From Mobula hypostoma (taxonomy: Eukaryota), in the NCBI RefSeq assembly GCF_963921235.1, contig NC_086097.1:45944001-46008000 (forward strand): 64,000 bases of DNA, given 5' to 3'. The stretch's first letter is position 1. Each line of letters opens with the position of its first letter. The position numbers were made by a program, and so were the translations under genes. The notes under the pieces are model-generated. The model searched no databases and was not told the DNA's origin. It saw only the letters and a program-made list of their open reading frames with translations. Shown in pieces: positions 5,618 through 57,140 of this stretch.

Positions 5618-5819
5618 GACACACATCAAAGTTGCTGGTGAACGCAGCAGGCCAGGCAGCATCTCTAGGAAGAGGTGCAGTCGACGTTTCGGGCCGAGAC
5701 CCTTCATCAGGATTAACTGAAAGAAGAGCTAGTAAGAGATTTGAGAGGGGGAGGGGGAGATCTGAAATGATAGGGGAAGACAGGAGAGGGAGGGTTGGAG
5801 CCAAGAGCTGGACAGTGGA
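5618..5819 (-). mobile_element. Penelope-like element (PLE) 3' terminus fragment
   Basis: Near-identical to 37441-37645, where the same terminus is attached to a PLE ORF end. Confidence 0.8.
5678..5715 (-). ncRNA. Minimal type I hammerhead ribozyme motif; best-preserved core in the window
   Basis: Minus strand UAAUC-CUGAUGA-A-GGGU-CUCG-GCCC-GAAAC-GUC-GACUG: both conserved boxes, 4-bp helix II, loopless palindromic helix III (ACGU), GUC cleavage triplet; one mismatch in helix I. Confidence 0.75.
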
Positions 5820-7676
5820 ATAGTGGATAGGTCTCTTTGCAGGTTTAATCATGGGAAAGCCGATATTGTCGGCTGTTTAAACATTATAATTCATTAATGA
5901 GTGCATATTCATCACTTTAGTAAATATTTTGAACTCCCAATTTGGCCTTATCAGATAATTTAAATTTGAGAGAGTGCTGTAAGAACTTAGCCAGTCAGGC
6001 AGCATCTGTGGAGAGAAACAGTTAACATTTCAGACTAATTTTCATAATCACAGGTACTATGTCATTGTCAAACAGTACAGAAGCAAGCCCACACCATATT
6101 CATGCTGATCATTTGACACCCATCAACACCAATATTATATATTTTTCCCCCCATTTGTATCAACCATACATACCTCCAATTCTACCATTCACCTGGACAT
6201 TGGCAGCCAATTATCCCGTCAGCCAACATATCTTTAGCATGATACTGCAGCACCCAGAGAAGGTCCATGCAGTTATAGAAAGAGCTGTCAACCTCCACAG
6301 AACCAAGGTCTCTGGAACCATGAGGCAGCAGTTTTACTAGCAGTTCCCATTGCTGCCTTTGTTTCTCAGATCTGAAAGCTTAGAGGCAACTAATATTTAG
6401 AACAACTATTGAGATGGAAAATGGAGAAGTGGGGAAAAAAACAAAGGTGGGTGACAAGGTCCATAATAAGCTGGAAGGTAAACTGTTTAATGAATGAGGC
6501 AAGATGTGAGTGCAAAGGACCTGCAAGTGGCAATTAGAGAGCAAAATAGAACATTTTTTCAAATGGAATTGTAATCTACTTGTACTTCCTATTTCAGTTC
6601 ACGGTCTTTGCTCTCATAGTGCTGGGTTTGAAGGTGTGGGGCAGGGGGATCAAAATTCAGGTTGATAATGTTTTGCTGACCTCCATAGTTCCAGTCGGGC
6701 ACTGAGGTAATTACTTGCTATTGCTACCAAGAAAGAACATTGACTTCAGGCTAGATCTTGGCTTAGCAACAAACCACTGACTATGGTTTTTCTTTGAGGA
6801 GCAGATTCTCGTAATAATTCTGTTGTTAAGATGTAAACTTGTCTTAACTCATATTGCCATCTCTGCTATCATTAAATTATACCTGCCCTTCTACACAGTC
6901 AAGAGTTTGTTCTGTTCCTCTTGTTGTTTATCTGTTTTGTACTTTATTTTGAAAAGTGGTACACTAATTTATCAAAGCTGAAGTTACTAACCTGATGATG
7001 CCTGACTGCTGTGCTCCGGCACCTGCACTATTTTATTTTCATCCATTGTAATTACATCATGAAGTGAGTATCTGCAGAAGGAAAGATGAGGTTAATTAAA
7101 TATGATCGTGATGTTCTTGACAAATGATCAAAAAGTTTTATTGCATTCATTCAGGTTAACAAATGAATAATGTTCATATGAATAAAATGCGCCACAACAA
7201 GAAATCAGCACTTTCAATCTTTTCTTTGCTCCCACTCCCCACTATCCTTCCCTGCACTATATTTAAGAATGCTTTGCACTGAATTAGTGGGTTCTTGTTA
7301 CAGATCTCAGGGTAGCTTTGATATCTTTAGGGGGTTTAAAAAAATCTGGTTCTCAAGGACAGGTAACATTAACATTAAAAGGTGCACAATAAAAGGGAAG
7401 TTTTTCTTTGTGTGGGGCTGTATTCTGGTGACCACGTCAAAGCAGAATCATTGAAATAGTCACCAATTCCTTTCTGCATGATGTACTAATAAACATATAC
7501 CCAGTGTATAATGTTCATATGAATAGTATAAGTTACTTCTGCTTTGACTTGGATCCTCTCAAATATTGTAAATAGATATGTATGCAGAAATCTCAATACT
7601 TGTTAGGCAAAGACAAATTTGACAAAAGTAATTTTGAAATTCTGTGCTGATAATATCTTTAAACAATATTTTACAG

Positions 7677-7718
7677 GTTCCTTCTGTGCTTGATGTAAGA
7701 TACCATTCTGCATCATGA
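7677..7718 (+). CDS. RCOR1: RCOR1 terminal coding exon (VPSVLDVRYHSAS*)
   Basis: Acceptor ttttacag|GTT in phase 0, consistent with the previous donor; peptide matches the recalled mammalian RCOR1 C-terminus (..VLDVRYASAS*); TGA at 7716-7718. Confidence 0.9.
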   Translation, partial: VPSVLDVRYHSAS

Positions 7719-10700
7719 GAATGACATTCAGTAGATGACTTGAACATGCTCTCTTGACTGCTGTTTTGTCCAGGTCATCCAACAATGCCAAACTTCAACC
7801 AACCACCTCCACAAACTCACCAGGACCAGCTTCCAGCTTAACACCAAAAAGCTGCAATATTCACAATTGGACCCTTCTGCCTTACCCTGCCTGCCACCGG
7901 GATAATTTCTACTTTTCATCAGAATCATGAAAAAAAAAACTTTGCTTCAACGTGCTTCTAAACAACATATGGAGTTCACAAAAACGTTTGTGAATGTATT
8001 GTTTTACACTTAACCAGTTCATGATTTAATGTCCACAGGGCATTAATAATTTGTATATTTTTGGAATGGTGATTGCCATTAGACACATCTTTGATACTTC
8101 CCTCACAAATATTTTATGATTTAATGTGAATGCCATGATTGTATATTGTATTAACTGGCGTACAGAAAATGGATGTTGGAACTGTCTCTAAATTATTGGG
8201 TACTTTAACTGTAGTTTGGACTGTCTCATAGACTTTAAACATACCTCCCATGTCTGAGGAAACTTGAAAGGCCTTTAACTAGCATTTTCACAAAAAGAAA
8301 AAAATGATCTGTTTTTATTTAAGTTTCATCTAGTTTGCTGTACAGTTTTTTTAGAGTAGTTCTTCCACATCAAGTATGGAGAGAACTTTAACTTGAATAT
8401 TGCAGTTACTATACTGAAACTGATCATATTCAGGTATAAAATATTAGCACAGCTAAGCTGTATGGAGTTTATTGCAGAATTCGGTGTGCTAACCGTATGG
8501 AGTTCCTGCTTATTCAGTATGATAAGGGTTAAGCACAATGCGCTACAGATCCATTGGGTTCATCAAAGTCATTTGAGTCTATGCATGTTTCTGTGTAAGA
8601 ATGGGTGTTTACAATTTCTACTTTAATATTTGCCTGAAATGCAAACCATTATTAGTCCTTTCTGGGAGTAATATTCCAGCATTTAGAATTTTCTAAATTA
8701 AGTTTGTTAAAATTGCTTATGGGTTGCTGCTGATATGTAGTGATGTTTGCCAGAATTTCAAAAAAAAAGGATTTAGTTTGCAATAAATTGAGCATGTTTT
8801 TATATAGCCTCTTGATGTGCTCAATAGGATGTTCTTTTTTAAAAGAAAAGTCGATGTGTTTATATTGCAGATTTATATTTTATTGCCTGTTACTGCTAAT
8901 TTTAACTGAGAAATAATTGTTAGTGAGAAATAATTCTAATTATTTCCAAGGTTTTAAGCATTATGTATCATAGTTCCACATTGAGAAATGGTTATATTAC
9001 AGTACTGCTTTGAATATTGGGCAGGGCTCTTGCTAACTGTATATTTTTAAGAAAATATAATTGTTATTGTGTTCAGTAAAAGTGGGAGGGATAAACAATC
9101 ATCGATCAAAGAAAGAACAAATTGAAAATTTCTAAATGCCACTTGTATAAAATTGTACTTCTAACTTCTCAATATGCACACAAGAGTTTTGATATAGCAA
9201 AATAGCTTTTGAAGGCCATTTTCAAAAAGAAGTAACTTAAATCATTTCTATTTTTCTATGGTTTAACCTTCCAGAATCTTGTATTTTTAATGAGTTTTTG
9301 TGCTTGTGATTGTTGGAACAGTCATGGAAATGTCATACAAATATGCTGTGTCATAAACATTTATAGCTTGAAAGAGGGGAAAAAAGAAAGTATTTGGTTT
9401 CAAGTAGCAAACAGCTAAAATACACTATGTTTGAAATGCCACCTTGAAAATTTAAAAAAAAATCCTTGCATAAAATACTTGGATACTAAGACAGTTAATT
9501 ATTTGCAAACCACACTATGCAAAACAAAATTATTCATTGTATTCCATTAAAGTGAATAAACTTTAAAGAATTTAACCAACTTGTACATTAAGCAATGATT
9601 CAAGTATTTTGAGAAAAATGTCATTATGGGCAGACTGTATGAATAGGATACCTTGTGTGCTTTGCGAAGTTTGAGGAACAAATGGTCACCTTACAAGTTA
9701 CAACATTTTGTTTTTAGATGTGCTGTCATTTGTTTCCTCTAAATTTAAAACTCAAGTGGCTATTTAAACAAATTTCTAAGTTTTTATTTTTAGATTATCT
9801 TTCTGAGTTGACAGCCAACTAAAGTAACTCAAAGTGTGATTACAGTTAAATAAACCACTATCTGAAAGTTTCTCAACATGACCAGATTTATTATACATTC
9901 AAGTATATGCAGAATGATTATTTGTAAAATTATCTAAAAACTGATTTAATCTGATTATGCAAACAAATTTGAAATGGGGATGAAGTCAAGCTGTTCAAAT
10001 GGAAAACTGTTGAATTTCAATAATTTTAAGATAACTTGGCAGTTAGTAACTGGAAAGAAACATCGCAGTAACTCTAATGCCATCAATGCATTTCAGACGT
10101 GTATTAGCAAATAATTATCAACAAGTTGTGTTTATGTTGTACCATAAACATAGCATAACAAAATTATCTGCGAGCACTTAAAGGCCGTAAAAAGGAAGTT
10201 GTTTTTTGTTTAGGGGATTCGAGAGCTTTGGGGTTTAGCAGGAGAAAAGATGCTCCTTCAAATACAATAGGGGCATTCAAGGGGCCTCTGATAGGCAGGT
10301 TTTGGAAGGATATGGCAGAAAGGATTAGTTTGATTGCAAAGTAATTAGTTTGGCACAACATCGTGAAACAAAGGGCTTGTATGTGATGTACTGTTCTACG
10401 TTCTAAGAATAAAGGAGTTGTTAAGTTGGAGAATGAACAAGCAACCATAACTGAGAGACACAAGAGACTGCAAACATTGGAGTCTATAATTAAAAGATGG
10501 AGGAATTCAGCAGGCCAGGTAGCATCTGCGGAGGGAAATGTTTTTGATTGGAACTCTGTCTGACGTTGGTACATTTAAGGCTGGAGGGAGGGAGGGTTTT
10601 GAGAACAAGGATTTGAGTTGTTTGGGGTAGTAAGCATGAGCTGAAATTTATTGTGTTAGGCCATAGTCAGCAGGACTTTAGATGACCAGATGTTAGAATT

Positions 10701-12715: not shown

Positions 12716-12833
12716 TTCTTTTTATATACTTCAGCCTATTTAAACAAGGAGGCACATAATCATGTTGAGACAAATTAGTATTTTATTATTAAACAGTTTA
12801 GTTCAAGCCCACAGAAACTGCCATACTGAACAG

Positions 12834-14000
12834 AGGAGATTACAAGTAGGATAGATAAAGGGGATGCAGTGGATGTTGTATATTTGGACTTTCAGAAGGC
12901 CTCTGATAAGGTGCCACACACAAGGCTGTTTACCAAGTTAAGAGCCCATGGTATTACAGGAACGACACTGGCACAGCTGATTGGTAGGAGGCAGCGAGTG
13001 GGAATAAAAGGATCCTTTTCTAGTTGGTTGCCAGTGTCTAGTGGTGTTCTGCAGGGGTCAGTGTTGGGACTGCTTTTTATGCTGTATATCAATGATTTAG
13101 TTGATGGAATAGATGGCTTTGTTGCCAAATTTGCAGATGATACAAAGATTGGTGGAGGGGTAGGTAATGTTGAGGAAATGGGTAGGCTGCAGCAGGTCTT
13201 GGATAGATTGAGAATAGGCAAGAGGGTGGCAAATGAAATACAATGTTGGAAATGCATGGTCATGCACTTTGGTCGTAGAAATAAATGTGCGGACTATTTT
13301 CAAAACGGGGATAAAATCCAAATGAGATGCAAAGGTACTTGGGAGTCCTTGTGCAGAACACCCTAAGGGTTAACTTGCAGGTTGAGTCAGTAGTGAGGAA
13401 AGCAAATGCCATGTTGGCATTCATTTCTAGAGGTCTAGAATACAAGAACATGGATGTGATGCTGAGGCTTTAAAGGACACTAGTGAGGCCTCACCTTGAG
13501 TATTGTGAACAGTTTTGGACTGACATTGGAGAAGATTCAGAGGAGGTTCACAAGGATGATTCTGGGAATGAAGTGGTATTCATATGAGGAATGTTTTTAT
13601 GGCTCTGGGTCTGTACTCACTGGAATTTGGAAGGATAAGGGGGAAATCTCATTGAAATCTTTCAAATCTTGAAAGGCCTAGACAGAGTAGATGTGGATAG
13701 GATGTTTCTGATGATGGAGGAGTCTAAGAGGAGGGCACAGCCACAGGATAGAGGGGCACCCAGGTTCAAAGAAATTTCTTTAGCCAAAGGAAAATGAATT
13801 TATTACCACAGGCAGCTGTGGAGGGCAGGCTGCTGGGTGTATTTAAGGCAGAGATGGATGGGTTCTTGATTGGCCATGGCATCAAAGCATATGGAGGGAA
13901 GGCTAGGGAGGGGGGTGGGGAGGATCAGCCATGATTGAATGGCGGAGTAGATTTGATGGGTCAAATAGCCTAGTTCTGCTCCTATGTCTTATGGTCTTAT
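12834..14000 (+). mobile_element. CR1-type LINE, 5'-truncated RT region and 3' tail
   Basis: VDVVYLDFQKASDKVPH, SGVLQGSVLG, AKFADDTKIGG; tail ..gctcctatgtcttatggtcttat. Confidence 0.9.
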
Positions 14001-16789: not shown

Positions 16790-18812
16790 ATATCAAGTCG
16801 TCACTTTTTATTGTCATTTCGACCATACAGTGCACAGTAAAAATGAGATGTTCTTGAGGACCATGGTGCTACATGAAACAATACAAAAACTACACTGAAC
16901 TACGTAAAAACAACACAAAAACTACACCAGACTACAGACCTACCCAGGGCTGCATAAAGTGCATGAAACAGTGCAGGCATTACAATAAACCATAAACAAG
17001 ACAATAGGCACAGTAGAGGGCAGTAGGTTGGTGTCAGTCCAGGCTCTGGGTATTGAGGAGTCTGATGGCCTGGGGGGAAGAAACTGTTACATAGTCTGGT
17101 CGTGAGAGCTCGAGTGCTTCGGTGCCTTTTGCCAGATGGCAGGAGGGAGAAGAGTTTGTGTGAGGGGTGCGTGGGGTCCTTCATAATGCTCTTTGTTTTA
17201 CAGATGCAGCGTGTGGTATAAATGTCTGTAATGGCGGGAAGAGAGACCCTGATGATCTCAGCTGACCTCACTATCTGCTGCAGGGTCTTGTGATCTGAGA
17301 TGGTGCAATTTCTGAACCAGGCAGTGATGCAGCTGCTCAGGATGCCCTCAATACAACCTCTGTAGAATGTGGTGAGGATGGGGGGTGGAAGATGGACTTT
17401 TCTCAGCCTTTGCAGAAAGTAGAGATGCTGCTGGGCTTTCTTTGCTATGGAGCTGGTGCTGAGGGACCAGGTGAGATTCTCCGCCAGGTGAACATCAAGA
17501 AATTTGGTGCTCTTAACAGTCTCTACGGTTGAGTCGTCGATGTTCAGCGGAGAGTGGTCGCTCCGTGTCCTCCTGAAGTCAACAATCGTTAAAATCATCT
17601 CTTTTGTTTTGTTCACATTCAGAGACAGGTTGTCAGCTCTGCATCAGTCCGTTAGCCGCTGCACCTCCTCTCTGTATGCTGACTCATCATTCTTGCTGAT
17701 GAGACACACCATGGTCATGTCATCGGCGAACTTGATGATCTGGTTTGAGCTGTGTGTTGCAGCACAGTCGTGGGTCAGCAGAGTGAACAGCAGTGAACTG
17801 AGCACACAGCCTGGGGGGCCCCCGTGCTCAGTATGATGGTGTTGGAGATGCTGCTCCCGATCCGGACTGACTGAGGTCTCCCAGTCAGGAAATCTAGGAT
17901 CCAGTTGCAGAGGGAGATGTTCAAGCCCAGTAGGCTCAGCTTTCCAATCATTTTCTGAGGAATGATTGTGTTGAATGCTGAACTGAAGTCTATGAACAGC
18001 ATCCGAACGTACGTGTCTTTTTTTGTCCAGGTGGGTTAGGGTCAAATGGAGGGTGATGGAAATGGCGTCATCTGTTGAACGGTTGGGATGGTACGCGAAC
18101 TGCAGGGGTTCCAGTGAAGGGGGCAGCGGGGTCTTGATGTGCCTCATGATGAGCCTCTCGAAACACTTCATGACGATGGATGTGAGTGCGACGGGACGGT
18201 AGTCATTGAGGCAGGACGCTGAAGACTTCTTCGGCATGGGGACGATGGTGGCGGCCTTGAAGCACGTAGGAATGATGGCGCTGCTCAGGGAAATGTTGAA
18301 GATGTTGGTGAGAATCTCTGCTAGCTGGTCTGCACATCCTCTAAGCACTCTGCTAGGAATATTGTCTGGTCCAGCAGCCTTCCGTTGGTTGACCCTGCAC
18401 AGGGTTCTCTTCACATCTGTCACAGTAAGACATAGCACCTGGTCATTTGGAGGAGGAGTGGTCTTCCTTGCTGCCATGTCATTTTCCGCCTCAAAACAAG
18501 CATAGAAGTTGTTCAGCGTATCTGGAAGGGAGGATTCACCAGCACAGGCAGGTGATGTCTTGTACTTGATATCCTGAATGCCCTTCCACATGCGCCACAT
18601 GTCGCCACTGTCCTGGAAGTGGCTATGGATTTGCTGGGCGTGTGCACACTTTGCCTCTCTGATGGGCATGGCCTGGCCGGGACAGGTTGGCCCTCACTGT
18701 TGTTAGGGCTGCCTTGTTGCCTGATCTGAAGGCGGAATCATGGGGCCTCAGCAGTGCACGCACCTCCGCTGTCATCCATGGCTTCTGGTTAGCGCATGTA
18801 GTGATGGTCTTG
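16790..18812 (-). mobile_element. Rex1/Babar-like LINE, frameshifted RT
   Basis: ORFs 17644-18669, 17775-18002 and 16900-17616: [58 protein letters not shown]. Confidence 0.92.
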
Positions 18813-18814
18813 GA

Positions 18815-19275
18815 CACAGTGAGGGAAAAAAAATTAGGGATGGGGTAAAAAGGAGAGGAGGGGCATTAATGGAAGTTAGAGAAATCATTGTTGATGCTCC
18901 ATCTCCCCTTCTTACCCCATCCTTATTTTTTTCTCTCGTTCCCTCTCACAATAACTCCTTGCCTGCTCTCCATCCTCCTCTGGTACTCCCCTCCCCCATT
19001 CTTTCTTCCTAGGCCTTCTGTCCTATGATACTCCCCCTTCTCCAGCCTTGTACCCCTTTTGCCTATCAACTGTCCAGCTCTTGGCTCTATCCCTCCCCCA
19101 CCTGTCTTCTCCTATCATTTTGGGTCTCCCCTCCCCCTCCCACTTTCAAATCTCTTACTATCTCTTTTTTCCATTCATCCTGACGAAGGGTCTCGACCCG
19201 AAACTTCGACTGTACTTTTTCCTATAGATGCTGCCTGGCCTGCTGTGTTCACCAGCATTTTGTGTGTGTTGCTTT
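18815..19275 (+). mobile_element. PLE 3' terminus with a short inverted 5' segment and variant hammerhead (19175-19212)
   Basis: 18815-18895 is the PLE ORF end in reverse orientation; then a pyrimidine-rich UTR, CTGACGA-AGGGTCTCGACCC-GAAAC-TTC-GACTG and the gatgctgcctggcctgctg tail. Confidence 0.8.
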
Positions 19276-20854
19276 CTGTAGCATCCTCTTTAAATAGTCA
19301 CCCTAATACTCATAATTAAACTATAGTAATATATTGTACCCAATCATTAATGAATTCCATGAAATCATTAGTTTCAAAAATGTATGCATTTTGTAAGTTT
19401 TATGTATAGCTTTGAAGCAATTTGTGAAAAATCAGATTTCCCTGTCAGACATAACCTGTATACAAGTATATATTTTTAATTTATCTAATTAAGTATTGTC
19501 AAGGGAAGAAAAAGGTGGTCAGCCTTGCAATGTAATGGTTTCAAATTATTTCTAGCTTACTATCTAAAGTGATGATATGGATGTTTTTGGATATGTATCA
19601 TGCCCTGTTAAGCCTGGTATTTTTACTATGTGTTTTTATAAACAATACCAACTCTATTTTTGACTAATTAAGTGCAGGAAATCTCTAAAGGTAAATGCTA
19701 TATTATTTGAAAATTCCTGCTTTTTCAGTATATGCCATTGCTATTTTAGTATGTAGGTTGTTTGGACCCGACATGGATCCAACCTTGGGGGAGGTGGGGT
19801 GTGGGGGGGGGGGAATGTTGTCAATGTGAATCTTGTGTAATGTATTATTACATGGTGTGACGTGATGCTGCTGTCCAGTGGTTTGGGAAGGATATCTGAC
19901 TGGGAGTTCTGTTTTTGAAATAAGTAGTTGTAAGGCTGTATTCTGGACTGGTTCCAAATTAGCAGTTGGCCTACTACTGTCTAAATACTACTGTCTAAAA
20001 CAATTAAGTGGGGCTTTCCTGCACCAAGCCTCAGGTGCTTCCTGTCTAATGCTTCAGGTGGCATGCAGGAACTTTCCAGAATTGTAGTTGGCTTTTTATC
20101 TGTGTTTTATCATTAGCAAAGAAGATTACTATAATTGTGTATAGAATTTCTGGGTGGTGGACAGATGAGGTGTTGCTTGGCAATAATCAGAACAAAATGC
20201 CAGATAAGTTGCACTATCACTGCAATCAATAACTAATTCATGAAATCTATTAGATTTCTCATTATCTACAATGGTTGAAGGACAATAAGTCAGTAACATG
20301 CAGGAAATTACAAAAATGTTTCAAACACAGATTGGAGAAAGCTCAGTTGCTGCTTGGTCAGAAATTGGTTGTAGATTAAGAGTGTAGTGGCATTTCTGAG
20401 TTGAGACTCAAAAGCAGTCAATTTCTAAACATCATTAAGAACATGTGATATTTTATTGTATATATTTGACTAAATAATTTCCTGAAGTACTGCCCACAAT
20501 AAATTGAAAAAATGTTTCCATATACAGTCTTCATTTTGCCACTGAATCGAGAACTATACCCACTAATTCGTATTGTATTGTTTCCTGTTTGGTGGTCTAA
20601 AGCAGAGCAGATGATGAATACATCCTGTCAGTTTTACCGCCTTGTACCACAAGAAAGAAAACTTGCCCAGTGAAATTGCACTTATCAGTGGAAAATGAAA
20701 TTTTCCAACAGGACTCAACTGAAAATATTGAAAATAAATTTTGGTGATGTACAACTGCCTGAAGGTTCAAGTTGAAATGTGTTCTGGTTTATTGTAAGAG
20801 ATACTCAGGCTGAGCCAAGCTAATACAGAAGAGTTTCCAGGCAAGCTGGCCTTG

Positions 20855-22375
20855 GTGGCCATGGGTTCTCCAGGCCTGTGCAAGCGAGCTAGCTGGAGTG
20901 TTTGCTGACATCTTCAACTGCTCCTTGCTTCAGTCTAAGATCCCCTCATGCTTTAAGAAGGCAACGATAATCCCAGTGCCGAAGAAGAGCAAGGTGGCAT
21001 GCCTGAATGATTATCGACCTGTGGCTCTGACATCAATTGCTATGAAGTGCTTCGAGAGATTGGTTATGGCATACATCAACCACAGCCTACCGGTCAACCT
21101 CAACACTTTGCAATTCGCATACCGGAGCAACAGGTCAACCGCAGATGCCATCTCTCTGGCCCTACATTCCTCCTTAGAACACCTGGAGAATAAGACTCTT
21201 TTTCATTGACTACAGCTCTGCCTTTAATACTATCATTCCAAATAAACTGATTCCTAAACTCCGGAACCTGGGCCTTAGCACTGAGATCTGCAGCTGGATC
21301 TTCAACTTCCTCACAGACAGGACCCAGGCTGTAAAAATAGGGGACAAGCTCTCCTCCACAATCACTCTGATCACCGGTGCCCCACAAGGCTGTGTACTCA
21401 GCCCCCTGCTGTACTCACTGTACACCCATGATTGTGTAGCCAAGTTTCCATCGAACTCAATATATAAGCTTGCTGATGACACAACAATTGTAGGCCGTAT
21501 CTCGGGTAATGATGAGTTTGAGTACAGAGAGGAAATTAAGAACCTGGTGGCATGGTGTGACGACAATAACCTATCCCTCAACGTCAGCAAGACGAAGGAA
21601 TTGGTTGTTGACTTAAGAAGGAGTAGCGGACCGCACGACCCAATTTACATCAGTGGTGCGCAAGTGGAACGGGTCAAAAGCTTTAAGCTCCTTGGGGTCA
21701 ATATCACAAATGACCTGACTTGGTCCAACCGAGCAAAGTTCACTGCCAAGAAGGCCCACCAGTGCCTTTACTTCCTGAGAAAACTAAAGAAATTTGGCCT
21801 GTCCCCTAAAACCCTCACTAATTTTTATAGATGCACCGTAGAAAGCATTCTTCTAGGATGCATCACAACCTGGTATGGAAGTTGTCCTGTCCAAGACCGG
21901 AAGAAGCTGCAGAAGATTGTGAACACGGCGCAGCACATCACACAAACCAATCTTCCGTCCTTAGACTCACTTTATACCGCACGTTGTCGGAACAGTGCTG
22001 CCAGGATAATCAAGGGCACGACCCACCCAGCCAACACACTTTTTGTCCCTCTTCCCTCCGGGAGAAGGTTCAGGAGCTTGAAGACTCATACGGCCAGATT
22101 TAGGAACAGCTTCTTTCCAATTGTGGTAAGACTGCTGAACGGATCCTGACCCGGATCTGGGCCGTACCCTCCAAATATCCGGACCTGCCTCTCGATTACT
22201 TTCCATTTTTCTATTTTCTATTTATGATTTATAATTTAAATTTTTAATATGTACTAATTTTTACTATTTTTAATATTTAATATTTGTAATCCAGGGAGCG
22301 GGAAGCGCAGAATCATATATCGCTGTGATGATTGTACGTGCTAGTATCAATTGTTTGGCGACAATAAAGTGTAAG
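20855..22375 (+). mobile_element. Rex1/Babar-like LINE, 5'-truncated RT
   Basis: ORFs 20898-21209 and 21547-22149: [60 protein letters not shown]; tail acaataaagt. Confidence 0.92.
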
Positions 22376-24612: not shown

Positions 24613-24619
24613 AAGTTTC

Positions 24620-37993: not shown

Positions 37994-38199
37994 AAGTTTG
38001 AGGTGTTGCAGTTTGGGAGAACCGGCAGGTTAGGACTTGCATGGTGAGCGGTAGGGCACCAGGGAGTGTGGTAGAATAGAGGGAGAGAGAGAGATTGAAC
38101 TTCTGAGGAAGCGAAAATGCTCCTCGCCACTTAAGACGACAAATATACTTTTTTGCCTGAACCATTTGATAATAGTTTGGACAAAATTCTTCCCTTGCA

Positions 38200-38990
38200 G
38201 ACATAGGAGACTGCAGCTGCTGGAACCTGGAACTAAAACTGCAGCAGATCAGGTAGTATCTGTGGAGATGGTGGCTATTTTGAGTTGACACTCAGCATCA
38301 GGACTAAGTGTTTAGGAGGAAGACAGCCAGCATATAGAAGAGAGATGCAGGGGTAAGACAAGGGCAGTTGTTGATTGGTGGAACCAGATGAGACACAGAT
38401 GGACTCGAGTTTGGCAGCAGCGTTGAGAGAGATTTGTTTGGTGGAAACACACAAAGGGGAAAAATGGAGCGAGATGCGTGAGAGCAGGGGGAAGATGGGG
38501 GCTGTAGCTGCTAACTGGTAGATGGACCCAAACAAGGGAGGTTTGATAGGGACATGGAACCAGGTGGGAGGAGGGGTTGTGGATAGGAAGGGTGAACAGA
38601 GGGAGAAGAACCCCAGTTGGATAGATCTGTAGGTGATGGGAAGATGGGACCAGATTAGCCGTAGGGGTAATAAATCTGGGTAATGGTGGACTGGGGCAGA
38701 GTGATAGAAAAGGTGAAGAATGGGAGAGAGACCCTGGTAGACTGGTGTGAGTCGGAAAGGAACATAGGGGAATGGGTTAAAATTGGTAGATTAAATATTC
38801 ATATTATTGTATTGTAGACTACCCAATTGGAATATGGGAATTCTGGTTCATGTATAGCCTTACTGTGGCAGAGAGGACTGAGGACAGGGGAGAATGTAGG
38901 GATGGGAAGGGTGATTGAAATGACTTATAACTGGAGGCTCAGGGTTTCACTGTGGGTGGAGTGCAAGTGCTCTGCAAAATGGTCATGGAG
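38200..38990 (-). mobile_element. Older, diverged PLE 3' region
   Basis: Tail-like start (gactgcagctgctggaacctgg..), purine-rich UTR on + strand, and tgtagactacccaattggaatatg similar to the ORF end at 37865-37900. Confidence 0.55.
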
Positions 38991-41509: not shown

Positions 41510-42562
41510 CCACTGTCTCCAAACTCGGGGGTAGCCATGGTCACTTGCATGGGCCCCAGCTATGCCTGCCTCTTCTTTGGCTACGTAGAATAGTCCATGT
41601 TCAAAGTTTTCCCCAGTTATATTCCCCAACTCTTCCTCCGCTACATTGATGATCACATTGGTGCTGATTTATACACCTACGCTGAGCTTGTCAATTTTAT
41701 CAACTTTACCTCTAACTTCCACCCTGCCCTTAAATTCACATGGTCCAACTCTAACACTTCTCCCTCTCCTTCCTTGTTCTCTGTCCCCATCTTTAGAGAC
41801 AAATAATCAACTGACATCTTTTATAACCCTACTGATACCCTGGTTATCTTGACTATACTTCTTCCCACCCTATCTTCTGTAAAAACACTATTCCCTTTTT
41901 TCAGTTTCTTCACCTTCACTGCATCTGTTCCGAGGATGTGGCTTTCCATTCCAGGACATTAGAGAAATCCTCCTCCTATAAAGAATGGGGTTTCCCTGCC
42001 CTGCATCTCCTCCATTTCCCATAATGTATATCCGCTCATCCCATCTTCCTGCCTCATTCCCATTCCAATGTGTCGGTCCGTGGCCTGCTCTTGTGCTAAG
42101 ATGAGGCCCCCTCAGGGTAGAGGAGCAACACCTATTTCTGTCTGTCTACCCTCCAATCAGATAGCATGAATATTGATTTCTTCTTCCTTTAAACAAGATC
42201 CCCCCTTCCTTTATTCCCCATTTTGACCTTTTATGTACTTCCTCTTGCCTGCCTAGAACTTCCCCCGGGTCCCTTCCTTTTCTCCAAAGGTCCACTCTTC
42301 TCTCCAATCATTCCTCTCCAACTCTTGACCTTGTCCACCCACATGGCTTCACCTATCACTTTCCAGCGAGCCTCCTTTCCTTCACTCTACCTTGTTGTCC
42401 TGGCATCTCCCCTTTCCTTCTCTGTCTTAAAGGAGGGTTTTGGCCCAAAACGTCAACTGTTTATTAATTTCCATAGATGCTGCCTGACTTGCAGAGTTCC
42501 TCCAGCATTTTGTGTGTGTGTTGCTTTGGATTTCGGGCATCTGCAGACTTTCTCATGTTTAT
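41510..42562 (+). mobile_element. PLE with RT core remnant, internal deletion, ORF end, UTR and decayed hammerhead (42421-42460)
   Basis: GVAMVTCMGPSYACLFFGYVE and LFLRYIDDHIG (PLE-type RT motifs), FHPALKFTWS, TDIFY, YLDYTSSHP, IPFFQF; then RVEEQHL..LQSDSMNIDF and the shared tail. Confidence 0.85.
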
Positions 42563-43240: not shown

Positions 43241-43378
43241 CAGATCCTGCTGAAGGGTCTCAGCTCGAAACGTCGACCATCCTCCTTTCCATAGATGCTG
43301 CCTGGCCTGCTGAGTTCCTCCAGCATTTTGTGTGTTTTACTTGGATTTTCAGCACCGGCAGATTTTCTTGTTTGTGAC
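43241..43378 (+). mobile_element. Short PLE terminus starting at the hammerhead motif (variant CUGCUGA)
   Basis: gatc-CTGCTGA-AGGGTCTCAGCTC-GAAAC-GTC-GACC followed by the conserved tail. Confidence 0.75.
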
Positions 43379-43866: not shown

Positions 43867-44090
43867 TCCATCCTCCCCCGTTTCCCCCCATCCTCCCCCG
43901 TTTCCCCCCATCCTCCCCCGTTTCCCCCCATCCTCCCCCGTTTCCCCATCCTCCCCCGTTTCCCCCATCCTCCCCGTCTCCCCACATCCTCCCCGACACC
44001 CCACCATCCTTCCCCGTCACCCACCATCCTCCCCCGTCACCCACCATCCTCCCCCCGTTTCCCCCCATCCTCCCCAGTCACCATCCCCCA
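43867..44090. repeat. C-rich minisatellite, ~18-20 bp unit (TCCTCCCCCGTTTCCCCCCA), degenerating 3'
   Basis: About 11 tandem units visible by eye. Confidence 0.92.
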
Positions 44091-44788
44091 TACATTTCCA
44101 AAACAATATACTGAGTTTCGAGGGGAATAGCCACAAGGTAATCTTGCACTGTTTGCTTCCTCCCCTTTTTCTTTCCTATTGGTCACCAGCCATTTGCTGC
44201 CGTACCTTTGATGTGACTACCTTGCTAAAGTGCTGAGTGATATAGTCGTCTAATCTACGCTTAGTGACCATGTAGAAGAGACCATACTGTAAGCACTAAA
44301 TGCAATAGTTTATGTTGGAGGAGGTGCAAGTGAATCTTTGCCTCATCTAGGCCCTTTAGTATTAGACCAACAATTCTTAGATACAGTAGGATAGATAAAG
44401 TATTTGTCTATGTTCCTCAGAATCTTAATAACTTCAAGGAGACGACTTTATTAACTTCAATCTTTTAGGATATATTCCAGTGAGAATAATTCTAGTCTTT
44501 CCTTCTAAATAAAGCTTTCCTGGTGATTCTCTTCTGCACTCTTTCTAAAGCTGCCACACCCTTCCTGTAGTGTGGTGACTAGCAACATTCTATTTTAAGG
44601 TTTATTTTTGACTTATTTTTAATTTTGTCCCCTCAATTCTTCTTTTGCTCATCTTCCTCCACTTTTATTTTACCTCATATTTGTTTTGTCTATTTTTTTT
44701 CTATGTTTTTGCACCACATGGGAACATGTGAGGTCATGCACTTCAGTAAGGGGACAAGAGAAATCAAAAGGCATATTATCCTCTAAAT

Positions 44789-45649: not shown

Positions 45650-47830
45650 AAGGTTCTTAACTGGAAGAAGGCCAAATTTGAAGAAATGAGAAAGGATCTA
45701 AAAAGCGTGGATTGGGACAGGTTGTTCTCTGGCATGGATGTGATCGGTAGGTGGGAAGCCTTCAAAGCAGAAATTTTGAGAGTGCAGAATTTGTATGTTC
45801 CTGTCAGGATTAAAGGCAAGGTGAATAGGAATAAGGAACCTTGGTTCTCGAGGGATATTGCAACTCTGATAAAGAAGAAGAGGGAGTTGTATGACGTGTA
45901 TAGGAAGCAGGGAGTAAATAAGGTGCTTGAGGAGTATAAGAAGTGCAAGAAAATACTTAAGAAAGAAATCAGGACATGAGGTTGCCTTGGTAGTCAAAGT
46001 GAAGGATAATCCAAAGAGCTTTTACAGGTATATTAAGAGCAAAAGGATTGTAAGGGATAAAATTGGTCCTCTTGAAGATCAGAGTGGTCGGCTATGTGCG
46101 GAACCAAAGGAAATGGGGGAGATCTTAAATAGGTTTTTTGCGTCTGTGTTTACTAAGGAAACTGGCATGAAGTCTATGGAATTAAGGGAAACAAGTAGTG
46201 AGATCATGGAAATTGTACAGATCGAAAAGGAGGAGGTCCTTGCTGTCTTGAGGAAAATTAAAGTGGATAAATCCCCGGGACCTGACAGGGTGTTCCCTCG
46301 GACCTTGAAGGAGACTAGTGTTGAAATTGCAGGGCTGAAATATTTAAAATGTCACTGTCTACAGGTGAGGTACCGGAGGATTGGAGAGTGGCTCATGTTG
46401 TTCCGTTGTTTGAAAAAGGATCGAAAAGTAATCCGGGAAATTATAGGCCAGTAAATTTAACGTCGGTAGTAGGTAAGTTATTGGAGGGAGTACTAAGAGA
46501 CAGAATCTACAAGCATTTGGATAGACTGGGACTTATTAGGGAGAGTCAACGTGGCTTTGTGCGTGGTAGGTCAAGTTTGACCAATCTGCTGGAGTTTTTC
46601 GAGGAGGTTACCAGGAAAGTGGATGAAGGGAAGGCAGTGGATATTGTCTACATGGACTTCAGTAAAGCCTTTGACAAGGTCCCGCATGGGAGATTAGTTA
46701 GGAAAATTCAATCGCTAGGTATACGTGGAGAGGTGGTAAATTGGTTAGACATTGGCTCGATGGAAGAAGCCAGAGAGTGGTGGTAGAGAATTGCTTCTCT
46801 GAGTGGAGGCCTGTGACTAGTGGTATGCCACAGGGATCAGTGCTGGGTCCATTGTTATTTGTCATCTATATCAATTATCTGGATGATAATGTGGTAAATT
46901 GGATCAGCAAGTTTGCTGATGATACAAAGATTGGAGGTGTAGTAGATAGTGAGGAAGGTTTTCAGAGCCTGCAGAGGGACTTGGACCAGCTGGAAAAATG
47001 GGCTAAAAAATGGCAGATGGAGTCTAATACTGACAAGTGTGAGGTATTGCACGTTGGAAGGACAAACCAACGTAGAACATACAGGGTTAATGGTAAGGCA
47101 CTGAGGAGTGCAGTGGAACAGAGGGATCTGGGAATACAGACACAAAATTCCCTAAAAGTGGTGTCACAGGTAGATAGGGTCATAAAGAGAGCTTTTGGTA
47201 CATTGGCCTTTATTAATCAAAGTATTGAGTATAAGAGCTGGAATGTTATGATGAGGTTGTATAAGGCATTGGTGAGGCTGAATCTGGAGTATTGTGTTCA
47301 GTTTTGGTCACCAAATTACAGGAAGGATATAAATAAGGTTGAAAGAGTGCAGAGAAGGTTTACAACGATGTTCCCGAGACTTGAGAAACTCAGTTACAGA
47401 GGAAGGTTGAATAGGTTGGGACTTTATTCCCTGGAGCGTAGAAGAATGAGGGGAGATTTGATAGAGGTATATAAAATTATGATGGGTATAGATAGAGTGA
47501 ATGCAAATAGGCTTTTTCCACTGAGGCAAGGGGAGAGAAAAACCAGAGGACATGGGTTTAGGGTGAGGGGGGAAAAGTTTAAAGGGAACATTAGGGGCGG
47601 CTTCTTCACACAGAGAGTGGTGGGAGTATGGAATGAGCTGCCAGACAAGGTGGTAAATGCGGGTTCTTTTTTTAACATTTAAGAATAAATTGGATAGATA
47701 CATGGATGGGAGGTGTATGGAGGGATATGGTCTGTATGCAGGTTAGTGGGACTAGGCAGAAAATGGTTCGGCACAGCCAAGAAGGGCCAAAAGGCCTGTT
47801 TCTGTGCTGTGGTTTCTATGGTTTCTATGG
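45650..47830 (+). mobile_element. Relatively young 5'-truncated CR1 LINE (ORF2 tether and RT, few frameshifts)
   Basis: Overlapping ORFs 45686-47682: KSPGPD, EDWRVAHVVPLF, YMDFSKAFDKVPH, PQGSVLGPLLF, KFADDTKIGG, TRGHG; tail of tandem GGTTTCTAT repeats. Confidence 0.95.
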
Positions 47831-47837
47831 AAAGGAA

Positions 47838-48230
47838 CACGCTTGGTGGCAACTTTATTAGTATTTCCTCTACCAAACAAAGTGGTCACTGAGTGGATGC
47901 TTTTCTGTTGCGGTAGCCCATCCACTTTAAGGTTCGCCAGGTTATGCGTTAGGAGATGCTCTTCTGCACACCACTGTTGTAATGCGTTAAGACAGTAACT
48001 CAAGTAACTAACAAGAGAAAATCTGCAGATGCTGGAAATCCAAGCAACATACACAAAATACTGGAGGAACTCAGCAGGCCAGGTAGCAACTGGGTCCTGC
48101 CAAAGGGTCTCAGCCTGAAACATTGACTGTACTCTTTCCCATAGAGTACAGTCTGGCCTGCTGAGTTCCATCAGAGTTTATGTGAGTAACTCAAATAACT
48201 GTTGCCTTCCTGATAGCATATATCAGCTAT
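47838..48230. mobile_element. Tc1-like non-autonomous element fragment containing a PLE-derived palindromic insert (~48009-48186)
   Basis: Starts acacgcttggtggcaactttattag (reverse of the terminus at ~30500); GTAACTCAA flanks the insert on both sides (~47995 and ~48186). Confidence 0.55.
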
Positions 48231-50950: not shown

Positions 50951-53537
50951 CCCCTCTTTTAGGAGAGTCAATGGTAGAGATCACAAAGGAGAGTGGGGAG
51001 AAAAAACTTTACAGGAAGTCAATTTCTTTCGAGTAGGTGGAATCTGCTCATCTTTTGACTTGGAAACGAGGATATAGTAGGATTCATTCTTTTTACCTCC
51101 CAAGTTCCCAAACCTTTTGAAATGAAAAAAAATATCATTGCATTCAGTGGAGGAGACCCCTGGTGCAAAAAAGAAATGACAAACACACTAAAAAGAAAAA
51201 AAGTATAGTTATCGGTATTCCCTGTTCCCTCCAAGTTATTCCTCTTTACTGTTCTGTATTTGCTAAAGACATTTTGGTTGGGGATGTGGCCAATTTCACA
51301 TTGTAAAACATTATTTACATGCAGACAAAAATACCACATGATGGAAATCTGAATAAAGGCAGGTTAGTCAGCTTTGAGGAGAATACAGAGATTATTGTTT
51401 TAACAAAAGGACTGTACATGACAACATTAATCCCTCTTCTGGACCAGGTGTTTCTATGAGCCACAGATTTCCAGAACTTCCAGCTGCTCTAGGCTTTCAA
51501 TACTAACTGGGTAAACTAATATTGAAAATATGTGGAAAAACTAAGAATAGCTGTGGGTACTTCCTTTCTCAATTATACTTGAAGCTTTTCCTTTCCTCTT
51601 GGAACAATATCTAATAGACCTAATGTTGTCTGTAAATTGACTTTGTACCGCACCTGAAATGCAAATGGGGGGGGGGAGGTGTAAATGCTTGAACTGACAT
51701 TTAATTTAAAAGCTTTTTTTTTTGTTTTAAATATCTTTACATTCAAAGTATGCTTTCTTCTGAGTGTGAACACAAATATTGTGATGAACTTTTCATACCT
51801 GACTCAATTCCTTTCATTGACTTGTGGATATGTGAACAAGGCATGGCAGTGGCAGGATATGTGAATCCAAATATGCAAAAATTTTCCCTGTGAGCTGCCT
51901 CCTTCAAGGACTGCACTGACACATTACACTCCGTACAGTATTTGTTTATGTTGAGGAGAAGCATGTGACAAGTGGTCTTAGGAAAATCCCTGAACTAGGC
52001 TGAAGAAAGAATGATGGAGCTGCTTATCTGTTGGTGCTTGTTAAAGCAGCTGGTAGTAGGAGAGAGCAGGCACAGTTAGCAATTGGCTTTTGAGAACCTG
52101 AACTTCACAGCCTTGGCAGATCTTGAGGACCATGGTCATAGTTGCGTTGACCTATATTTGTGTTTGAGTGTGAAGATATGTATAATTAAATGAGTAACAG
52201 CATGCAGTGAGGACTAAAAGCTGAGGAATGTTTTGAACTGAAAGTTTTAGTGTGAAAATAAAAGTAATTATTGTTTTCTAAATGGGGGGGGGGGGTAGTT
52301 CATTTGTTTTCTTAGCTTTATTTTTTCCTGGCTCTTCCTTATTGAAATTAGTGATCTTCACAAATACAAATAACCCTCTTCAATAACACTGCACCGTTCA
52401 GCAAGAATATTCCTTGGTCGTAGTTTCGACTGTTTGGTTCTTGTCATGTTGAGTTATTGTTATGGGCACAAGTAGAGTGAGGTATGAATACCATGGAAAA
52501 TGTTTCAGTGGCATCACAGGTATGTAGGTACAGACAACACACAGAATATAGATAAATTGTAGATTGTACAAGACACTGAAGAGAGAAAAGGCTGTGCAAA
52601 AACAAGACGTGAGTGCAAAAATAAAATGGAACACTATGGTCTATAGTGTTCCATTGCTCTGGTAGAGTTAGGACTCTGCAAGTCAGTTCAGAAGGCTGAT
52701 GATTGTCAGAAAGTAGCTATTGCTGAAACTGTGGTGTGGTACAAAAGGTCTTTCAACACTTGTGTCATGGAGGTCCACTCCCTATTTAGCATCTTTGCTG
52801 ATCTTAGATCTGATTAGGAGCACGAACAGGTTAAAACAAAGGTAGGGATCTGTTGCCATTTAGTTTGTGGAAAACAATACAGTATAGGCTTCATTTTAAG
52901 TGACTCAAAGTAGAAATAAAACTTTATGATTGGCATTAAATAGAATTGTTATATATAATAAGTTTCCAAGTAATTTTTAAAGATTTTACAGTTTGACATT
53001 TTATCTTAATATCTTGCATTTGAAGATGTTGCATTGTCACTGAAGGTACCTACCCCAGTGTTGCTGATAGTCCAACCGAAGTACCTGTGAATACTAATGC
53101 TCACTGGACACTGTTGTCAAATCCTGTGAATCTTGTTAGTGAGGAGATATGTAAAATGCTGCTTGAAACCAACGAACTCCAACCAGTTTTCACCAATCAA
53201 TGATAGTTGTCATTTATTCTTTGACCTCGAGTTTCTGGCATTGCCATGAACAAAGAAAATGATATTGATGAAACTCCTTTTAAAACCACAGGGAAGCCCA
53301 AAGTACTTTAGTGGCAAAGAATTAGTTTTTACATAACTGTAATCCAGGTCTCCTAATACAATGGAATGATGACCTGATGATCTGCTAAATGACATTGGTT
53401 CAAAGATGAGTTTAAAAATAGACAAGGTTCTCTGGTGTATGGCTGAGGTGTTACAAAGACTATGTTTACTCATCTTCAGGAGGAGAATGGGCCTTGGTTC
53501 AACATTTCACAAGAAAGACATCTCTCCTTCATAAGTA

Positions 53538-54300
53538 GCACACACAAAATGCTGGAGGAACTCAGCAAGCCAGGCAGCATCTATGGAAAAGAGTACAGTC
53601 GATGTTTTGGGCTGAGATCCTTCATCAGGACTGGAGAAATAAAGATGAGGGTTCAGATTAAGAAGGTGGGGGAGGGAAGGAAGAAACATAAGGTGATAAG
53701 GTGAAATCTGGAGTGAGGGGGGAAGGGTTGAAGTAAAGAGCTGGGAAGTTGGTGAAAGAGATACAGGGCTGGAGAAGGGGGAATGTGATAGAGGATAGAA
53801 GCCCATGGAAGAAAGAAAAGAGGGAGCAGCACCAGAGGGAGGTGATGGGCAGGTAAGGAGATAAGGTGAGGGAGGGGAATGGTGAAGGAGAGGGGCATTA
53901 TCTAATTTCTGGTAATGCTCCCCCTCTCCTTCACCATTCCCCATTCCCATTTCCCTCTCACCGTATCTCTTTACCTGCCCATCCCCTCCCACTTTTCTTT
54001 CTTCTGTGGCCTTCTGTCTTTTCCTATCAGATTTCCCCTTCTCTAGCCCTGTATCTTTCACCAATCAACTTCCCAACTTTTTACTTCACCCCCCTCCCAG
54101 TTTCACCTATCACCTTGTGTTTCTTCTTCCCCTCTTCCCCAGCCCCTCCACCTTCTAACTTTGACTCATCTTTGTATCTCCTGTCCTGATGAAAGGTCTC
54201 AGCCGAAAACATCAACTATACTCTTTTCCATAGATGCTGCCTGACCTGCTGAGTTCTTCCGGTATTTTGTGTGTGTTGCTGGGATTTTCCAGCCCCTGCT
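53538..54300. mobile_element. Inverted pair of PLE termini, each with a decayed hammerhead (53596-53634 minus, 54181-54217 plus)
   Basis: Left arm is the reverse complement of the right arm around ~53905 (ggggaatggtgaaggagaggggcatta / taatgctcccctctccttcaccattcccc). Confidence 0.85.
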
Positions 54301-55197: not shown

Positions 55198-55478
55198 CTG
55201 GTGTAGCACAGTAGCGTAGTGGTTAGCACAGCACTTTACAGTACAGGTGACCTGGATTCAGTTCCCACCGCTGCTTGAACGTTCTCCCTGTGACCATGTG
55301 GATTTCCTCTGAGTGCTCTGGTTTCCTCCCACAGTCTAAGGATGTATTGGTTTAGGTTAATTGGTCATTGTAAAATGTCCCGTGATTAGGCTAGGGTTAA
55401 ATCGGGGTACTGCTGGGTAGTGTGTCTTGAAGGTCTGAAAGGGCCCACTCCGTGCTGAATCTCAGTATAAAAAAAAGG
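55198..55478 (+). mobile_element. V-SINE/HE1-like tRNA-derived SINE
   Basis: A-box gtagcgtagtggttag, B-box-like ggattcagttccc, V-domain-like tggatttcctctgagtgctctggtttcctcccacagtc, A-rich tail. Confidence 0.8.
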
Positions 55479-56340
55479 GTATATATTTTCCAAAAATAAT
55501 ATTTTTAAACTAATCTACAGGTGGGATGACAAATGAGTGACTTTAGGTTAGTGGCTTTCAGAATAATATAGTAGTAAATGTAAATTATTTATTAAAGAGA
55601 GAAAATTATACAGATCTATTTCATGGGAAGTTTAGCTCATAATAATGAAAATAAAATAAATGACTGCTCATGGTATTTCTAAAGCGACTTTGGACTCAAT
55701 GGCAGAAAGTAGTTTTTAGTGTGAAATCAAATTGCATAACGATCATTATTTAATTAAAATTATTTTGATTAATAATAATATAAACAATTTGCAGTTAACC
55801 AGAGCTTGGCTGAATGACATACTTCCTGGGAAGTCATAGCCCATAGACTGACATTCTGTGTTTTTTTTAATTCATCCTAATAACATCAGTAAAGAAGCTT
55901 GGAGAAAAGAAGTGTTTCTGTGCAATGGCTTATTAACTACATTTGCGTAGTTATTACATTCTTAGATTCAGGGCTGCTGAGGATGGGGGAGTTTTTGTGA
56001 ATTTGTAGTTGGAGTTATTAAAATCAAAAATTAAAAAATAAACTCAATAGGAATTGGATATCTGAAATAAAGTGCTGAAAATATTCAGCAGGTCAGGTAG
56101 TATATGTTGAGGGAGAAACAGAATTAATGTTTCAGGTTAATTAGAATTGGAAAGATTTTCTTTCCCTTTTCCAATGTAGAGCCTTCATGCTGGAATTGTA
56201 TGTATTTATTCTCTACTGTTACAGTTCCTGGTTTTGAATGATCCTAACAGAATGCAATAACTGACAATGGCTCAGTAAGTAGATGGTCAGTTATATAGTG
56301 AAAAGGGCTTGTTTGTAAAAACCCATAGTTGATTTAGCTA

Positions 56341-57140
56341 TAAACACAGAGTCTGCAGATGATGAAAATCCAGAGTGTGCGCGCACAAAGTGCTGGAGGA
56401 ACTCAACAGGTCAGGCAGCATCTATGAAAGTGAATTAACAGCCGATGTCTTGGGCCAAGACCCTTAATTAGGACTGGAACGAAGGGAGAAGCAGCCAGAA
56501 TAAGAAAGTGGAGTGAAGAGAAGGAATACAAGCTAGAAGGTGATGGATGAAGCCAGGTGGATGGGGGAGGAAATAAGGAGCCGGGAGGTGGGAAAGGTAA
56601 AGGGAAGAAGTGTGATGGGAGAAGAGAGTGGACCATGGGAGAAAGGGAAGGAGGATGCGACATCAGCGGGAGGTGATAGACATGTCGATTCATGGCCACC
56701 TCTGCTGTCATGATGGAGGAGCAACACTTCTTTTCTGTCTGGATAGCTTCCAATCTGGTGGCACGAGCATAGGTTTCCCTAACCCCTAACCTCTAACCCT
56801 CTCCCTTCCCTCCTCCATTTCCCACTCTGGCTCCCCTCTCACCTCTCCTCTCCTTACTTGCCTGTCACTTTCCTGTGGTGCCACTTCTCCTTCCTGTTCC
56901 CCCGTGGCCCACTACCTGTCAGCTCCCAGCTTCTTATCTCCTCTCCCACTCACTTGGTTTCACCTATGACCCTCTAGCTTGTACTCTTTCCCCTCCCCCC
57001 CCACCTCCTCATTCTTGCTTTTTCCCACTTCCTTTCCAGTGCTGAGGAAGGGTGGCGGTCTGAAACGTTGACTGTTCATTCAGTTCCATTGATGCTGCCT
57101 GTCCTGCTGAGTTCCTCCAGTATTTTCTATGTGTTGATTT
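56341..57140. mobile_element. Inverted pair of PLE termini (minus arm 56341-56680, plus arm 56681-57140), hammerhead remnants at ~56438-56476 and 57037-57074
   Basis: Plus arm starts in the ORF end (DMSIHGHLCCHD..EEQHF) and carries CTGAGGA-AGGGTGGCGGTCT-GAAAC-GTT-GACTG. Confidence 0.8.

Follow-up and report, generated by a model that had tools for sequence, protein, structure and literature searches.

The 64,000-nucleotide stretch of the ray Mobula hypostoma studied here (contig NC_086097.1 of assembly GCF_963921235.1, positions 45,944,001 to 46,008,000; hereafter the window, in whose own numbering all coordinates are given) carries ten dispersed copies of a motif of about 38 nucleotides (nt) resembling the minimal hammerhead ribozyme, which raises the question whether these are ribozymes at work in the ray genome or remains of a mobile element that left them there. 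It is highly probable that the motifs are relics of minimal type I hammerheads from the 3' untranslated region (UTR), or pseudo-long terminal repeat (pseudo-LTR), of a Neptune-type Penelope-like element (PLE) family heavily amplified in the ray. All of the motifs are borne by PLE ends truncated on the 5' side, and these ends are characterized by target-site duplications, inverted arms and an optional tail.

All ten motifs recorded in a first-pass annotation of the window, made from the sequence alone, are present within 1 nt of the places and on the strands given there, and their recurrence is far above that expected from shuffled sequence. Once registered, they occupy 5678-5715, 37500-37537, 53596-53633 and 56439-56476 on the minus strand and 19175-19212, 42422-42459, 43242-43279, 48092-48129, 54181-54218 and 57037-57074 on the plus strand. 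When the 37500 copy served as the query of a gapless scan, the ten and no others came up with at most 12 mismatches in 38 positions, and one further relic (38269-38306, minus strand) came up at 15 mismatches, while 100 block shuffles of the window gave no match at 13 or fewer mismatches and a mean of 0.2 at 15. With a profile built from the ten motifs, 21 pieces of the shared 3' end were found in the window, the 11 additional ones being older or shorter. Another relic of the motif, additional to the ten, is located at the edge of the window (63921-63995, minus strand).

The consensus anatomy proposed in the annotation, including the extra A, the short helix II and the loopless ACGU, is borne out by the majority motif, in which the CUGANGA, GAAA and UH core is complete, helix I is AGUC/GACU, helix II comprises four base pairs (bp), three of them G-C and one U.G, and the palindromic ACGU has no loop. 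N17 is C in eight copies and U in two, the extra base between positions 9 and 10.1 is A in all ten, and the G10.1-C11.1 pair closing helix II is G-C in six copies, G.U in three due to CpG decay and unpaired in one. All four features of the minimal metazoan PLE hammerheads described by Cervera and de la Peña in 2014 (PMC4209133) are found in the majority motif, namely the extra base, G10.1-C11.1, the palindromic 15.2-16.2 and membership of a large consensus family; with PLE remnants attached as well, the earlier assignment to minimal type I hammerheads on PLE termini holds. The likeness to the motifs of that paper extends to the CUGANGAH core, the missing loop III, the short helix I, the U-rich upstream flank, the position in the PLE 3' repeat and the distribution, which is mostly of dispersed single copies with some opposite-strand pairs 100-700 bp apart. 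The closest of its printed rows, judged by eye, are those of Acropora digitifera (Neptune), Crassostrea gigas and Xenopus tropicalis (2). The ray motif differs in its short helix II of 4 bp, and cartilaginous fish are absent from Table S1 and from the 56 rows of Fig. S3 of that paper.

Roughly 100 nt separate the motif from the point where the truncated PLEs terminate on the 3' side. In the shared 3' end, a UTR rich in pyrimidines is followed by the motif, then by a conserved block some 45 nt long and then by either of two end points, the short end stopping at a UG-rich run and the long end possessing an extra 38-nt tail (37403-37440, minus strand), which is present in some ends and not in others. 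Coding remnants stand upstream of the motif at 37403-37993 and 41510-42562 and, weakly, at 56676-57132, in the order reverse transcriptase (RT) followed by C-terminal GIY-YIG endonuclease. The link to RT and GIY-YIG remnants asserted earlier for the first two of these places was confirmed with tblastn: the RT core at 41528-41994, interrupted by stops and a frameshift, matches the protein of the public gene model P0001 at E 1.6e-46, and the endonuclease C-terminus at 37835-37993 (minus strand) matches the same protein with 83% identity over 53 amino acids at E 9e-23. Weaker endonuclease matches were obtained at 42055-42180 and 56676-56783 (E 7e-4). Nine read-through translations of the broken frames in the window gave no Pfam family, so PLE identity rests on the tblastn matches to relatives, in which Pfam recognizes RVT_1 and, below its cut-off, GIY-YIG. 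An old PLE GIY-YIG remnant with no linked motif lies at 44218-44346 (minus strand), adjoining a 20-bp tandem repeat (43868-44075).

The ten motifs belong to eight motif-bearing insertions, because those at 53596 and 54181, and likewise those at 56439 and 57037, are the two arms of single inverted insertions. The best-preserved insertion (37403-37993, minus strand) contains the endonuclease end, the pyrimidine-rich UTR, the motif, the 3' block and the tail, and is bounded by an exact 13-bp duplication (37390-37402 and 37994-38006). The PLE remnant at 41510-42562 (plus strand) possesses the RT core, an internal deletion, the endonuclease end (42055-42180), the UTR, the motif and the tail. A tailless PLE end at 5619-5817 (minus strand) is flanked by an exact 8-bp duplication (5611-5618 and 5818-5825), which is weak alone, whereas no duplication was found for the plus-strand insertion at 18826-19275, comprising an inverted open reading frame (ORF)-end piece (18826-18897) and a PLE end from about 18926. 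The insertion at about 43244-43376 (plus strand) has a tail and starts at the 5' edge of its motif. In the inverted insertion at 48008-48184, a motifless minus arm (48008-48091) with 3' block and tail is joined to a tailless plus arm starting at 48092, the whole being flanked by a 16-bp duplication with one mismatch (at 47994 and 48185). The inverted insertion at 53535-54300, with two motifs on opposite strands, has the short end on the left and a partial tail on the right, and no duplication was found for it. The third, at 56342-57132, has a minus arm with a tail and a tailless plus arm that begins at about 56676 and matches the endonuclease end weakly, and is flanked by a 14-bp duplication with one mismatch (at 56328 and 57133). 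All three thus carry the tail on one arm only, partial in one case. Beyond the eight, an insertion of about 60 bp at 58277-58337 (minus strand) consists of the 3' block only, between exact 15-bp duplications (58262 and 58342); an older, heavily decayed minus-strand copy at 38185-38900 (limits set by eye) contains the relic at 38269-38306; and at 61252-61427 two older copies of the 3' end stand in inverted orientation, their junction falling inside the region of the motif. Inverted 5'-truncated copies are therefore those at 48008-48184, 53535-54300, 56342-57132 and 61252-61427, together with the inverted 5' piece at 18826-18897.

Ten insertions were tested for duplications, which measure 13-16 bp in four, 8 bp in a fifth and are not convincing in the other five. 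Among 300 random pairs, an exact duplication of at least 13 bp never occurred, one of 14 bp with one mismatch occurred once and one of 8 bp 20 times. The 5' ends fall at varied places, between the interior of the motif and a point 912 nt upstream of it, and the 3' ends are fixed at two points; in public sequencing runs, 76 contigs of run X1, 58 of X3 and 32 of X19 pass at 37403 from the element to dissimilar flanks, which marks a fixed 3' end. These data bear on the proposal that the pieces are a separate non-autonomous unit, a non-LTR retrozyme or a short interspersed element, and not truncated autonomous PLEs. Most pieces are indeed non-coding and shorter than 600 bp, and tandem retrozymes derived from PLE pseudo-LTRs have been reported, along with PLEs, in one chondrichthyan (Li et al. 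2026, bioRxiv 10.64898/2026.07.22.740005). Yet scattered 5' ends with two fixed 3' ends, and several pieces running on into ORF remnants, do not suit such a unit, nor does any of the eight tandem-repeat rows in the window overlap a motif; we find the proposal very unlikely. The retrozymes of that preprint share with the ray family type I hammerheads from PLE pseudo-LTRs and differ in being tandem repeats with a motif in each unit, an arrangement not seen in the window. In two of the ten copies the start nearly coincides with the motif's 5' edge, only a few bases apart from it (43244 and 48092). A pile-up of 5' ends at that edge was rejected as a general trait, since in the families of other animals only 4 of 91 such ends fall within 10 nt of it.

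The state of single copies speaks to whether any of them could still act. All 11 core letters are kept in four of the ten copies, the palindrome ACGU in five and both in three, and no copy is free of core or helix lesions. The copy at 5678-5715 has the core and ACGU intact with one helix I mismatch (predicted cut after 5683), and that at 37500-37537, with its predicted cut after 37505, retains core, ACGU and helix I and has two helix II pairs turned into G.U; one of these two is again a G-C pair in nearly all related contigs through the base they carry at 37514. At 57037-57074 core and ACGU are intact, the first helix I pair is broken and helix II is weak, and at 19175-19212 the core is intact, the palindrome is broken (G16.2 to U) and helix I is left with only 2 bp. 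The other six have lost core letters: A6 at 43242-43279; A6 and G8, with a broken palindrome, at 48092-48129; G12, with a broken palindrome, at 53596-53633; G12 and C11.1 in this register, with a broken palindrome, at 54181-54218; four positions, with a broken palindrome, at 56439-56476; and four positions (C3, G5, A9 and G12), together with the first helix I pair, at 42422-42459. Outside CpG, 9 of 100 core letters and 17 of 160 other motif letters are changed (p=0.83), and the CpG columns are changed most (23 of 80). The copies decay irrespective of the catalytic core, on which there is no selection in the window.

It could be supposed that the host has retained some of the genomic copies as functional ribozymes, which cut host transcripts through a neighbouring copy or in trans. 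The density of 8 insertions and 21 pieces in 64 kb agrees with this, as do the core and palindrome retained at 5678 and 37500, the thousands of family contigs in runs guessed to be RNA, and the nearest same-strand pair, 42422 and 43242, only 820 nt apart. Both members of that pair are dead, however, the former with its four core changes and broken first helix I pair and the latter without A6; the paired arms lie on opposite strands, so one transcript of them folds as a long hairpin and not as a double hammerhead; no copy is lesion-free and the core is not under selection; and the minimal motifs already described show no activity as monomers and little as dimers (PMC4209133). A host role is thus hardly credible, and the motif copies in the window are almost certainly inactive: what had been called about ten ribozymes are decayed relics. 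Of the abundance estimate made at the same time, the very high copy number stands and the rate of one per about 6 kb does not, there being 8 insertions per 64 kb.

For the hammerhead fold, other animals provide outside evidence. At least 121 metagenome loci possess the same core; they come from other animals, and none matches the DNA of the ray element by blastn. Since the search pattern fixed the core and the outer helix II, only helix I can be tested in them. At least three contiguous helix I pairs are present in 53 of 74 distinct motifs; among helix I types, 25 of 43 have at least three pairs, against a shuffle mean of 6.7 and maximum of 17, and none of 5000 shuffles was as high, a count that is not to be read as a probability because the types are related by descent. 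In motifs with the same core, separate from the ray family, helix I letters thus vary and yet pair. PLE protein is matched at E 1e-5 or better by 32 of the at least 121 loci, and one of these loci (L003) has a nearly whole ORF with the motif after it and an inverted motif before it. Contigs of other animals also show inverted motif pairs a few tens of bases apart (L021 1642-1722, L024 3476-3564, L066 3501-3581) and, in L090, a short direct tandem of the motif that could supply a dimer partner. Viral contigs gave no match to the core pattern.

Loop III being absent from the motif, helix III cannot be closed within a monomer and can be closed between two motifs, ACGU on ACGU; the loopless palindromic architecture agrees in this with the first-pass annotation, according to which cleavage would need two motifs. 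On the mechanism we propose, the source element would be a partial tandem with two motifs on one transcript, which would swap strands so that the palindromes form a 4-bp helix III and helix I is built between the partners. A cut would be made after GUC, weakly and probably with the assistance of the element's own protein. Reverse transcription would have two start sites, located 60-100 nt downstream of the motif and giving the short end and the tail end, and would usually stop early, so the motif would be copied into most insertions as a passenger, cut or uncut; because 60-100 nt past the cut are retained in the insertions, the usual template is uncut RNA. Dimer cleavage would presumably take place in such source elements.

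Several results weigh against this reading or against the hammerhead identity itself. Rfam, suggested earlier as a check, failed to detect the motif: the 64-kb window gave no match at the gathering score, and searches around the two best copies up to E 10 returned 4 and 2 matches, none of them a hammerhead. Covariation of the helices, another suggested check, is absent among the ten copies, where values as high as those observed arise in 166, 379 and 212 of 500 shuffles, and folding z-scores are near 0. These nulls are what would be expected if the hammerhead likeness were a chance feature of an ordinary repeat end, but that is vanishingly improbable given that the two helices, the palindrome, G10.1-C11.1 and the extra base are combined with a full set of 11 core letters, and this at the place known from PLEs; the published consensus match and the helix I pairing in other animals contradict it. 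Conservation in the source lineages was taken from 21 pairs between three subfamilies delimited by eye: between subfamilies the motif (identity 0.73) exceeds the upstream 60 nt (0.60) and falls below the downstream block (0.81), the values within subfamilies being 0.78, 0.72 and 0.87, respectively. The motif is better kept than the upstream UTR, yet it is not the best-kept part. No partial tandem in a pseudo-LTR arrangement occurs in the window, and no insertion there has two same-sense motifs, hence no built-in dimer partner; head-to-tail joints in single contigs of runs X1, X3 and X19, among the 15 of 40 joints listed, give a weak hint of partial tandems elsewhere. The contigs show no shared molecule ends, although contigs cannot show RNA ends. 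In folding of the majority motif, the active double hammerhead reaches -19.9 kcal/mol, the best dimer -33.7 and two monomers -25.4, so the model, which omits the non-standard pairs of the core, does not favour the active form. The gap of about 14 kcal between the active fold and the best dimer equals the median of 72 motifs of other animals (13.9) and is therefore typical of the class; it fits the low in vitro activity of minimal motifs and the protein need of the anole element. Low activity as dimers in vitro is what PMC4209133 describes.

The remaining points of this kind concern the clade. Among 122 proteins compared, the CX2-5CxxC linker just upstream of the YIG box, by which PMC8557442 distinguishes Neptune and Nematis, is present in 91 of the 96 relatives that reach this box, but the zinc-linker stretch is missing from the remnants in the window; and the protein tree, with 32 of the 122 proteins, has an arbitrary root and no clade-labelled references. 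In it, ray and shark PLE proteins form, with two unlabelled rows, one branch (100/99), the other named rows being corals, snails and a sea urchin (44-50% identity) and most rows being unlabelled. Owing to the missing linker stretch and the lack of labelled references, the element is only putatively assigned to the Neptune/Nematis type, judging by protein sequence. Among named proteins, the best relatives belong to Hypanus, Mobula, Rhincodon, Chiloscyllium and Stegostoma, all rays and sharks, with 92% identity over 87 residues between 37733-37993 and a Mobula gene model, and no bony vertebrate is named among the 120 protein matches listed.

In its RT and C-terminal GIY-YIG order, and in the linker of its relatives, the element resembles the endonuclease-bearing (EN+) Neptune/Nematis PLEs of Craig et al. 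2021 (PMC8557442). Like them it is truncated at the 5' side, has 5' copies in inverted orientation and bears a tail of 30-40 bp on a single end, the one-sided tail being seen in Fig. 2 of that paper and in PMC11167929 as well. Unlike those PLEs, the family has no full-length or partial-tandem copy in the window, and it shows clear target duplications of 8-16 bp with no microsatellite target seen there. In the anole Poseidon element PAc (Frangieh et al. 2024, PMC11167929), as in the ray family, the hammerhead is upstream of two 3' ends with an optional tail between them, and insertions retain sequence past the cut site; the tail was explained by two internal start sites of reverse transcription. 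PAc belongs to another clade and has an ORF beginning at stem II of its hammerhead, whereas an ORF start within the ray 3' end was rejected, no start codon or frame being common to the subfamilies.

Could the motif be kept in the source elements for a non-catalytic job, as a protein binding site, splice acceptor or part of a promoter, with cutting vestigial? This alternative is compatible with the favoured reading as to what the motif is and differs on function only. Its best arguments come from other PLEs: insertion of the anole element in vitro is unaffected by core mutants and no RNA reads end at the cut (PMC11167929), and Naiad PLEs thrive without canonical motifs (PMC8557442). In the ray, the 60-100 nt kept past the cut point to uncut RNA as the usual template, and a pyrimidine tract with YAG overlaps helix I. 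Against these stand the core and the pairing of helix I, both of which persist in animal lineages far apart although the letters of helix I differ, and the anole motif itself, which cuts in a core-dependent manner once protein is added (PMC11167929). The splice-acceptor version has neither a conserved donor nor a spliced joint among the 15 of 40 joints listed. We consider a purely non-catalytic role unlikely, if plausible enough to be kept in mind, and prefer a hammerhead that would cleave in the source elements.

The tract mentioned above precedes helix I and has 17-20 pyrimidines of 22 in eight of the ten copies (e.g. 37535-37560 and 53631-53655, both minus strand); in four of ten it is followed by a splice-acceptor-like YAG that overlaps helix I. 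An intron ending in helix I, as described for Drosophila virilis Penelope (PMC4209133), was rejected for the ray on the grounds of donor and joints just given, YAG notwithstanding. The 45-nt block, about 12-57 nt downstream of the motifs (e.g. 37443-37487, minus strand), surpasses the hammerhead in conservation and is still present in old copies; it may be a protein-binding or RT start element and may pair with the tail. No consensus fold was obtained for it with 16 sequences, the z-scores of four copies being -0.8 to -2.3, while a set of eight sequences of the 3' block gave a 16-pair fold with five two-sided changes but many breaks.

As to the rest of the window, the PLE piece at 37403-37993 interrupts an older long interspersed element (LINE) fragment (36600-38075) that matches 46255-47045 and 30114-30308. 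RT-coding LINE remnants are abundant (12830-14000, 16900-18693, 20814-22149, 25569-27447 and 45918-47682), and, judging by their motifs, we take them to be CR1-like and L2/Rex-like.

Contigs matching the family number 10,929, 6,245, 206 and 1,776 in four public sequencing runs, figures which, like depth, do not equal copy number and carry no molecule-end information. If the window is typical, the density in the ray is far above the 4,000-9,000 motifs per genome given for coelacanth and Xenopus in PMC4209133. A preprint on the whale shark describes expanded Penelope-like elements in introns, and our literature search, which did not extend to repeat databases, found no paper on an elasmobranch PLE hammerhead. 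The kind of element has been published since 2014 (PMC4209133), and the ray family is a further case of this ordinary kind. Public gene models of ray, skate and shark (P0001, P0002, P0110 and P0013) consist largely of PLE protein under names such as kinase-domain, chitinase-domain and nicotinamide riboside kinase isoform, and P0013 reads on through the UTR into an apparent motif; these models are likely to be annotation artefacts.

Two junctions may bear on cleavage in the animal itself. Within 58262-58356, the start of the piece at 58277-58337 is some 3 nt past the predicted cut and is preceded by 8 nt of its target copied in inverted orientation, and in an old, decayed piece at 3871-3913 (minus strand), for which no duplication was found, the alignment starts at position 1.1, directly after the predicted cut. 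Such tiny insertions would arise if germ-line RNA were cut by the family's hammerhead and the 3' product sometimes served as template. We hold this doubtful, as the inverted target copy and 4 nt of microhomology account for the 58337 junction equally well, and chance could produce one or two starts of this kind in a set of 21 pieces.

With this family, rays and sharks join the animals whose PLEs carry the minimal hammerhead, and gene models in their genomes have to be read with the warning that they absorb PLE sequence. Cutting in vivo is called unclear in PMC8557442 and was undetected in the RNA reads of PMC11167929, and insertion junctions alone might test it; if the cleaved product did serve as template, the large copy number of the ray family would be a fossil record answering whether PLE hammerheads cleave in vivo.

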